Of a stretch of 64,000 nt of DNA, positions 37,702-41,185 are shown piece after piece (position 1 is the first letter of the stretch; each line of letters starts with the position of its first letter). Location: assembly GCA_964387985.1 (NCBI GenBank), contig CAYLZG010000001.1, positions 438-64,437 on the forward strand, given 5' to 3'. The position numbers and the translations under genes are program-made. The notes below the pieces were generated by a model. It worked only from the letters and a program-made list of their open reading frames with translations, was not told the DNA's origin and did not search any database. The DNA comes from an uncultured Anaerolineales bacterium (GTDB lineage: Bacteria > Chloroflexota > Anaerolineae > CG2-30-64-16).

Positions 37702-38628
37702 TTACGCAGAAGCAGCGCCGGGCCGCGCACTGCGTCGCATGATGATGAACAAGGTGAGGAACGTGGCTGCAGCTACGACTGAGGCAAATATCAGGCCATT
37801 CAGCGGCGTGGGGCGCAGGCCGCTGCGCGTGATTTCACTGAGCAGTGTGCTGACGACGCCGTTCAGAATCGCAGCGAGCAGGAGCCCAGCCGGCAGCCAG
37901 AAGGGACCACGGTTCTCGAATTTGGCGCGACCCAAGAAATAGCCGGTCACACCGGCAAACGAAGCATGTGCCAATGCGATGACGGCAATACGGACTGCGC
38001 CGATCCCCAGATCGACACCGCCGTTCTGCAGGACATATTGGACGTTCAAGAGGGTGGCATAGCCCAAACCGGCAGCAGCGCCGTAAATGATGCCGTCAAT
38101 GCGCTCGTCAAATTCGACGCTGCGGAAGATGCTGTAACGAACGGCAGCATACTTAAGAAACTCCTGCGTGACGCCCACGATGCAGATGCCTGCCAGCAGC
38201 TGCAGGAAGAGACTGCTGCCAGCCCACTTGTTCACCCCAAACACATCCTGGATCAACGGCTGGCCCACCGCGGCTGCCAGAAGAACACCCAGAATAAAGA
38301 CTCCGATGACGAATTGCTTCGGCTCCGGCTCAGCGCGGTCCTGAAGATAGAATACGCCCAACCAGGCGGCCGCCGGAACCAGCGCCAACAGGAGACCGGC
38401 AATGGTAAGCCAGGGGCCTTGCAGATTGGTGCGTAGGGCCGGTGCGCCGAAGAACACTGCTGCCACAAACGCGGCAAGGCCGATGATCAGAACCAACATG
38501 GCCAGCCACATGCCGCGACGATTCTGGCCCAACCGGGCATAGTGATCATCGCAAAAGGACCGACCGCCGAACATTCTGGCCGCGCCAGCAATTGACTTAT
38601 TGCACACGCAGCAAGTTTCGCCCGCCAT
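37702..38628 (-). CDS. prsW: PrsW-family intramembrane protease with N-terminal zinc-ribbon
   Basis: Motifs DRAEPEPK and QEFLKYAAVR, a His-containing C-terminal helix, and a polytopic layout. N-terminal CCVC...CDDH. SD AAGGAGG lies 8 nt before the ATG. Confidence 0.75.
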   Translation of the reverse strand: MAGETCCVCNKSIAGAARMFGGRSFCDDHYARLGQNRRGMWLAMLVLIIGLAAFVAAVFFGAPALRTNLQGPWLTIAGLLLALVPAAAWLGVFYLQDRAEPEPKQFVIGVFILGVLLAAAVGQPLIQDVFGVNKWAGSSLFLQLLAGICIVGVTQEFLKYAAVRYSIFRSVEFDERIDGIIYGAAAGLGYATLLNVQYVLQNGGVDLGIGAVRIAVIALAHASFAGVTGYFLGRAKFENRGPFWLPAGLLLAAILNGVVSTLLSEITRSGLRPTPLNGLIFASVVAAATFLTLFIIMRRSARPGAASA

Positions 38629-38703
38629 AAGTGCATTCCTCCTTTGAAGAGACGGCCTCTGTGATTGCCAGGGGAGAAATCGAGCCGGGCCCTGCCGGTC
38701 GGG

Positions 38704-38958
38704 CTACTTCAGGCGTGCACGCACCTGGCCGATGATGAATTCGTTGGTGGTGTGAATGCCGGTGGCAGCCTTCGAATAGATCAACTCGTCATCGACGGTC
38801 ACTTCGTACCGGCCATTGCCCGAAGGAATCAGCACGATCGACTCAATGGGGTGTTGCCCTCCGACGAAAGGCTTGAATGTGTTGACCAATGTTTCCGCCA
38901 AACTGACGGCCCGGGGCGTGTAGTTTCACGCCACACAAAATTCAATCGAGATACGCAT
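38704..38958 (-). CDS. SelW/Rdx-family selenoprotein (84 aa) with in-frame UGA = Sec in a CxxU motif
   Basis: Reading the minus strand from the ATG at 38958 gives MRISIEFCVA-U-NYTPRAVSLAETLVNTFKPF...GNGRYEVTVDDELIYSKAATGIHTTNEFI. The UGA is at 38926-38928, in frame with track ORF 38704..38901. GGAG lies 9 nt before the ATG. Confidence 0.85.
38895..38909 (-). promoter_or_regulatory. Candidate bacterial SECIS stem-loop
   Basis: The RNA is CCGUC-AGUUU-GGCGG (5 bp including one G-U, 5-nt loop containing GU). It begins 16 nt after the UGA. The alternative hairpin GCGUG-AAACUA-CACGC spans the UGA itself. Confidence 0.4.
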
Positions 38959-39119
38959 GTTTTCTACTCCGTGCCTGGATGGGGTTGTTTCAACCATGCG
39001 CGGGCCCCGGACTGTTTTAAAGTCCAAACAGGGCGCCGCGCTGGCGGTAATAACTTGCGGACCGGCGAACGAAGGCAGATAAATTTCGCGACAAAACGCG
39101 GGCGGAGCCGGATCTCCCT

Positions 39120-39341
39120 TTACAGAATCGGCCGATCGGGCTGGCGCGCCTGGGCAAACTGGGATTCGAGTTCCGCGCGTCGTTCTGCCGAGGCGCGCTT
39201 GCCCTCGTCGATCACCATATTCAACCGCTGCTTGATTGTCTCCTGCATGTCATGACCCGACTTGGGCGCCATCAGTGAAGTTACCGCCGCGCCGGTCAAC
39301 GCACCCAAAAGCAAACCTTCAACAAACTTCCCAACACTCAT
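39120..39341 (-). CDS. YtxH-domain small membrane-associated protein
   Basis: MSVGKFVEGLLLGALTGAAVTSLMAPKSGHDMQETIKQRL is a typical YtxH N-terminus. The start is moved to the ATG at 39341 (AAGGAG 7 nt upstream). Confidence 0.75.
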   Translation of the reverse strand: MSVGKFVEGLLLGALTGAAVTSLMAPKSGHDMQETIKQRLNMVIDEGKRASAERRAELESQFAQARQPDRPIL

Positions 39342-39399
39342 GTATTGCTCCTTCTTTCCGTGCAACCGGTGAACTCGCGCTCATCGATAAGGCAGCGCA

Positions 39400-39454: not shown

Positions 39455-41183
<1,729 letters not shown>

Positions 41184-41185
<2 letters not shown>

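Follow-up and report, generated by a model that had tools for sequence, protein, structure and literature searches.

Bacterial SelW-like selenoproteins and the present locus

SelW-like proteins carrying a CXXU redox motif have been catalogued in bacteria through selenoproteome surveys of the Sargasso Sea, the GOS collection and complete genomes (PMC1088965, PMC1794560, PMC2398784). In the Sargasso Sea data they made up the most abundant selenoprotein family, with 48 genes (PMC1088965), and they are listed for many complete bacterial genomes, the selenocysteine (Sec) form having been suggested as the original one (PMC1088965, PMC1794560). The Sec form predominates in this family, and Cys homologues are few in organisms that decode Sec (PMC1794560). 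Our literature search returned no bacterial SelW-like member with a demonstrated substrate or an experimentally shown function, and nothing specific on SelW-like proteins in the Chloroflexi.

Two further groups of described proteins bear on the comparison. The bacterial crystal structures of the Cys type (Atu0228, 2FA8; SAV_2001, 3DEX; and the proteins of P. fluorescens, 2OBK, B. parapertussis, 2OJL, and V. cholerae, 2P0G) share the fold and the motif position with the protein described here, but carry CxxC (CTQC) in place of CxxU, are 21-31% identical to it, and are encoded without an in-frame UGA or a SECIS element. Mammalian selenoprotein W (mouse SelW, 2NPB), SelT, SelH and MIEN1/Rdx12 likewise present CxxU or CxxC on a thioredoxin-like beta-alpha-beta-beta-beta-alpha core. 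These eukaryotic relatives are more distant in both sequence and structure, however, and their SECIS element, located in the 3' UTR, is built differently (PMC1088965). The known SelW partners, glutathione and 14-3-3, are also eukaryotic and are no guide to what the bacterial proteins do.

Here we describe a member of the bacterial group encoded on the minus strand at 38958-38704 of the window, by which we mean the whole 64,000-nucleotide stretch of DNA analyzed; the host is represented by a metagenome-assembled genome (MAG) of the Anaerolineae (Chloroflexota) from anaerobic reactors. On sequence comparisons we consider it very likely that this gene specifies an 84-residue SelW-like selenoprotein with Sec inserted at the UGA of codon 11, a reading that draws together the gene structure, the family membership, the conservation of the UGA, a covarying hairpin, the Sec machinery of the genome and the predicted fold. 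The locus resembles the catalogued bacterial SelW-like CXXU genes in its Rdx domain, its length of about 80 aa, its N-terminal CxxU and a candidate SECIS element right after the UGA with a G in a small apical loop. It shows no difference in kind from them, being set apart by its Anaerolineae lineage and by a six-residue insert between helix 1 and strand 2. Bacterial SelW-like selenoproteins have been recognized since 2005, and the present gene corrects a truncated gene model without adding new biology.

Gene structure, family membership and fold

The ORF list for the window contains an entry at 38704..38901 on the minus strand, 65 aa long and opening with a TTG codon, just as a previous sequence-only reading of this DNA had reported. 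That reading carried the frame upstream through a single TGA to an ATG at 38958, and the raw sequence bears out this extension in every coordinate: the 84-codon frame runs on the minus strand from the ATG (38958-38956) through one TGA (38928-38926, codon 11) to a TAG (38706-38704). With the TGA translated as U, the product is MRISIEFCVAUNYTPRAVSLAETLVNTFKPFVGGQHPIESIVLIPSGNGRYEVTVDDELIYSKAATGIHTTNEFIIGQVRARLK. The GGAG that the same reading placed upstream of the ATG also stands, at 38970-38967, although its spacer measures 8 nt and not 9. The features of the gene are as follows.

38704..38958, minus strand: coding sequence of the putative SelW-like/Rdx selenoprotein, 84 codons plus the stop TAG (from translation, Pfam, NCBIfam, AlphaFold and Foldseek)
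38967..38970, minus strand: Shine-Dalgarno motif GGAG, read directly, 8 nt from the ATG, with GGAG/GGAGG-type motifs at the equivalent site in most orthologues
38935..38937, minus strand: TGT codon of Cys8, the putative resolving cysteine of CxxU, opposite the first Cys of CTQC in 3DEX and 2FA8
38926..38928, minus strand: in-frame UGA, predicted to be read as selenocysteine (U11), in the same column in relatives and opposite the second Cys of CxxC in the solved homologues
38899..38901, minus strand: TTG (Leu20), apparent false start chosen by ORF callers, lying within the putative SECIS hairpin

Membership in the Rdx/SelW family, proposed initially from the motif pattern, is confirmed by profile searches. 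Pfam Rdx (PF10262) aligns with the 84-aa reading over positions 1-73 of its 74, scoring 60.3 bits where the cut-off is 22.6, and the NCBIfam model TIGR02174 (CXXU_selWTH) is passed as well, with 42.3 bits where 34.2 are required. The best-scoring NCBIfam model is NF041051 (SelTWH_Campy), at 63.4 bits; this lies below the equivalog cut-off of 88, and the protein thus falls outside that narrow group. Names assigned by JGI to close relatives, "predicted Rdx family selenoprotein" or "selenoprotein W-related protein", are of the same kind. Cys8 and position 11 are both invariant in our alignments A2 and A3. Alignment with the solved homologues 3DEX and 2FA8 begins at residue 2 and places C-T-Q-C opposite C-V-A-U, and the one Cys form found among the wider relatives discussed below (locus L088) has TGC for the second position; Cys-containing homologues carry their cysteine where the present frame has its TGA.

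The 84-aa product is predicted to adopt a thioredoxin-like, Rdx-family fold. An AlphaFold2 model built from a 32-sequence alignment (pLDDT 94.7, pTM 0.84) orders its elements as beta1 (residues 2-8), the CxxU loop, alpha1 (14-27), beta2, beta3, beta4 and alpha2, so that the CxxU motif (C8-V-A-U11) occupies the beta1/alpha1 junction. In Foldseek searches with this model, the top 21 PDB matches are all bacterial SelW-related structures (2FA8, 2OBK, 3DEX, 2OJL, 2P0G, 2OKA), with TM scores of 0.80-0.86 and rmsd values of 1.0-1.5 A; mouse SelW (2NPB, TM 0.64), MIEN1 and thioredoxins rank after them. The six-residue insert (KPxVGxxHPI) maps to residues ~30-38 (window 38845-38870, minus strand) between helix 1 and strand 2, and distinguishes the Anaerolineae clade from homologues of other phyla.

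Selenocysteine machinery and genetic code of the genome

Decoding of UGA as Sec implies that selA, selB, selD and selC exist elsewhere in the genome, as the sequence-only reading had pointed out, and all four are found. A single tRNA-Sec with anticodon UCA is identified by ARAGORN on another contig (C92) and scores 73.7 bits with Rfam RF01852 against a cut-off of 47. The selA gene is present at 570 bits, and selB at 293 bits plus a match to its C-terminal part, in a frame of 647 aa. Two selD genes are also present, each with a UGA at the active-site pattern ...AG-U-A[AS]K... and each followed by a downstream hairpin with GU in its loop; they could be paralogues, or one could derive from a co-binned strain. 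Both lie outside the window (loci L009-L011, L043 and L044).

C42:4466-5401, plus strand: selD copy
C18:1030-1970, minus strand: selD copy, broken by a run of N

The genome is a MAG, 89% complete with 2.7% estimated contamination, and the Sec genes are therefore assigned to the same organism as the window through binning and composition: the contigs that carry them resemble the contig of the window, with a GC content of 61-64% and tetranucleotide distances that do not stand out. ARAGORN recovers only 27 tRNA genes from this MAG, which at 89% estimated completeness means that the assembly clearly lacks part of the tRNA set.

The presence of this machinery bears most directly on the possibility that the UGA is translated as an amino acid other than Sec (Trp, Gly or Cys), whether by code reassignment, by a suppressor tRNA or by read-through with a near-cognate tRNA. 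UGA at Sec codons can indeed be read through with Cys or Trp when selenium is limiting, which lends this explanation some general plausibility. A reassigned genetic code is, however, ruled out for this genome, since TGA is its commonest stop codon, ending 1733 of the 3349 open frames that are 300 codons or longer, or about half of them, and since prfB, encoding RF2, is present (500 bits); the code is therefore the standard one. Moreover, homologues have a redox Cys opposite codon 11, a residue that Sec is known to replace, and the genome dedicates a tRNA-Sec, SelA, SelB and SelD to Sec insertion, with a SECIS-type hairpin bearing a conserved loop G at the gene itself. With these points against it, translation of the UGA as a residue other than Sec appears very unlikely, and Sec at codon 11 continues to be our favored assignment.

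Conservation of the UGA and of the upstream frame

A six-frame search of 60 relatives yielded orthologues, 36-87% identical, in 28 genomes drawn from the organism's own genus, family and class. All 28 orthologues have exactly one in-frame TGA over the full-length match, and in each it occupies the same column, within the pattern ...[EF][FY]C-x-x-TGA-[NG]Y... The ten codons that precede the TGA are conserved as protein, M-[RK]-[IV]-[ST]-I-E-[FY]-C-x-x, and in each of the 27 intact orthologues an ATG or GTG stands 7-8 codons ahead of the CxxU Cys, mostly with a Shine-Dalgarno motif (GGAG/GGAGG). The upstream frame closes just before this ATG or GTG in many orthologues, so that the start is unambiguous there. 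A wider scan, taking one genome per species, gave 562 relatives, the best 80 of which were inspected at the TGA position. Among these, the codon is TGA at 78 of 79 loci and TGC at one (L088); the set is biased to the subfamily of the query, and the 78:1 ratio is thus no estimate for the Rdx family as a whole. The wider loci come from the Chloroflexota (Anaerolineae, Caldilineaceae), Actinomycetota, Gemmatimonadota, Fimbriimonadales, Fictibacillus and others. Coding sequence is conserved on both sides of the TGA, the point to which the sequence-only reading had appealed.

These comparisons decide against a second explanation, in which translation does end at the TGA, the functional product comes from the 65-aa ORF beginning at TTG 38901, and the ten codons upstream belong to a leader or a tiny ORF. 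Every public gene caller models the gene and its relatives in this way: the 104 public protein relatives are without exception truncated calls of ~65 aa, covering ~77% of the query. The 65-aa ORF by itself also exceeds the Pfam Rdx cut-off, at 31.4 vs 22.6 bits. That match, however, spans profile positions 20-73 only and lacks the redox motif, whereas the codons upstream of the TTG fill profile positions 1-19. The ten codons before the TGA are, furthermore, conserved as protein and provided in orthologues with their own start and Shine-Dalgarno motif, none of the orthologues begins at the TTG, and the TTG corresponds to Leu20 within helix 1 and within the hairpin, such that a product initiated there would be devoid of beta1 and the active site. 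Termination at the TGA is accordingly an explanation of still lower probability.

We give next to no credence to the idea that the locus is a pseudogene whose TGY Cys codon recently mutated to TGA, for although TGC or TGT to TGA is a single-base change and one relative carries a frameshift further downstream, the TGA recurs at over 100 loci in several phyla, a Cys codon is the exception (1 of 79 among the best 80 of 562), and the frame downstream is open and under purifying selection. In keeping with such selection, a strain co-occurring in one sequencing run differs at six sites, and all six (6/6) are synonymous third positions of the 84-codon frame. The frameshifted relative, an orthologue in a same-genus MAG (G001; L041/L064, locus ~1501-1752), keeps both the TGA and the hairpin and loses the frame after ~codon 45; this could reflect true pseudogenization or, alternatively, an indel error in a long-read assembly.

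An assembly error at the TGA was also considered and is ruled out, since four independent studies, of bioreactors, digesters and manure, yielded contigs that are identical over 38650-39050.

A covarying hairpin downstream of the UGA

The selenoprotein reading calls for a SECIS element, and a candidate, written as CCGUC-AGUUU-GGCGG and placed 16 nt after the UGA, had been put forward in the sequence-only reading. A hairpin is indeed found there, spanning nt 20-34 when counted from the U of the UGA.

38895..38909, minus strand: putative SECIS hairpin CCGUCA-GUU-UGGCGG, with a 5-6 bp stem, a small apical loop and an invariant G at 38903

The UGA-to-loop distance is ~21 nt, which we take to be within the accepted range for bacterial SECIS elements. 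A single-sequence RNA fold of 38931-38868 has a minimum free energy no better than that of shuffled sequences (z = -0.44), and it sets the proposed hairpin within a different global fold. Because the single-sequence fold is no more stable than shuffles, the case for the hairpin is a comparative one.

This comparative evidence is of several kinds. Across 27 orthologues, the stem formed by nt 20-25 and 29-34 is 99.4% paired, and three of its six pairs show two-sided changes (C-G to G-C, G-C to A-U and C-G to U-A). None of 500 shuffles attains this degree of pairing or covariation, pairing falls to 26-53% when the 3' partners are slid by 1-3 nt, and RNAalifold independently predicts the identical helix. 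When the comparison is widened to 96 distinct sequences from all phyla in which the gene was found, stem pairing stands at 92.9%, vs 25-52% in the slid registers, and the loop G at nt 26 (38903) is invariant (96/96). Third codon positions are 78-97% fixed within the stem vs 36-53% just 3' of it. In L088, the sole Cys form among the best 80 of 562 relatives, only three of five stem pairs are kept. The proposed hairpin is thus upheld by covariation, by the slid-register controls and by RNAalifold, and these lines of evidence support its identification as a bacterial SECIS element, a short one of 5-6 bp.

One base pair illustrates how the putative element and the protein constrain each other. The pair between nt 23 and 31 is U-A in 32 of the 96 sequences, C-G in 34 and U-G in 30, with no mismatch in any. 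Its two partners are base 2 of codon 18 and base 1 of codon 21, and the protein consequently co-varies with it: residues 18 and 21 are Ala/Ala in 33 sequences, Val/Thr in 29 and Val/Ala in 29, while Ala/Thr, which would impose a C.A mismatch, occurs in none of the 96. The locus therefore offers a clean example of an in-frame SECIS element acting on protein sequence, in which two residues vary jointly such that a single base pair is held.

Proposed mechanism and significance

From the established bacterial Sec pathway and from the chemistry of thioredoxin folds, we infer that selenium is inserted at codon 11 and that Cys8 and Sec11 engage in redox chemistry. SelB carrying Sec-tRNA(Sec) would bind the hairpin within the coding sequence and deliver Sec at codon 11 in competition with RF2. 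Cys8 and Sec11, brought together at the beta1/alpha1 junction, would then most likely constitute a thiol/selenol pair capable of forming a reversible selenenylsulfide, through which the protein may act as a small oxidoreductase, reducing or modifying a substrate.

The value of the finding lies in annotation. In public databases, this gene and no fewer than 104 of its relatives appear as 65-aa fragments devoid of the active site, and selenoproteome counts and metaproteomic databases built from such MAGs consequently miss the real protein. With the corrected gene model, the Anaerolineae of anaerobic digesters and sludge would join the lineages whose SelW-like protein contains Sec. The understanding of selenocysteine decoding, and of the SelW-like family, is unchanged.

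Gene neighbourhood and distribution

Three genes on the same strand flank the Rdx gene, two upstream and one downstream.

39455-41185, minus strand: Elp3-like radical SAM protein, 576 aa, with Radical_SAM and Radical_SAM_C domains, upstream of the Rdx gene
39120-39365, minus strand: small YtxH-like protein, upstream of the Rdx gene
37702-38628, minus strand: PrsW-family intramembrane metalloprotease (Pfam, 85.6 bits), beginning 75 nt downstream of the Rdx stop and preceded by its own AGGAGG

The PrsW gene is probably co-transcribed with the Rdx gene. Its product has a Cys-rich, zinc-ribbon-like segment at the N-terminus (CCVC...FCDDH). The order Elp3-like, YtxH, Rdx, PrsW is kept in the genus and in part of the family (about a dozen family-level relatives), and is absent from the other phyla examined. 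We considered the neighbourhood as evidence of functional coupling and rejected it, since an order limited to the genus and part of the family gives no reliable functional lead. A more specific proposal, prompted by the conserved neighbours and the six-residue insert, is that the Anaerolineae SelW-like protein serves as a redox partner or sensor of a PrsW-type regulated-proteolysis switch; we regard this as improbable, and if true it would for the first time give a bacterial SelW-like protein a physiological function.

Among public sequencing runs, the stretch occurs in DNA metagenomes only, neither of the two listed RNA runs holding it. The segment 38650-39050 recurs in near-identical form in metagenomes of bioreactors, anaerobic digesters, sludge, manure and wastewater (X1-X20) from more than a dozen studies, and this recurrence identifies the organism as a widespread member of engineered anaerobic systems.
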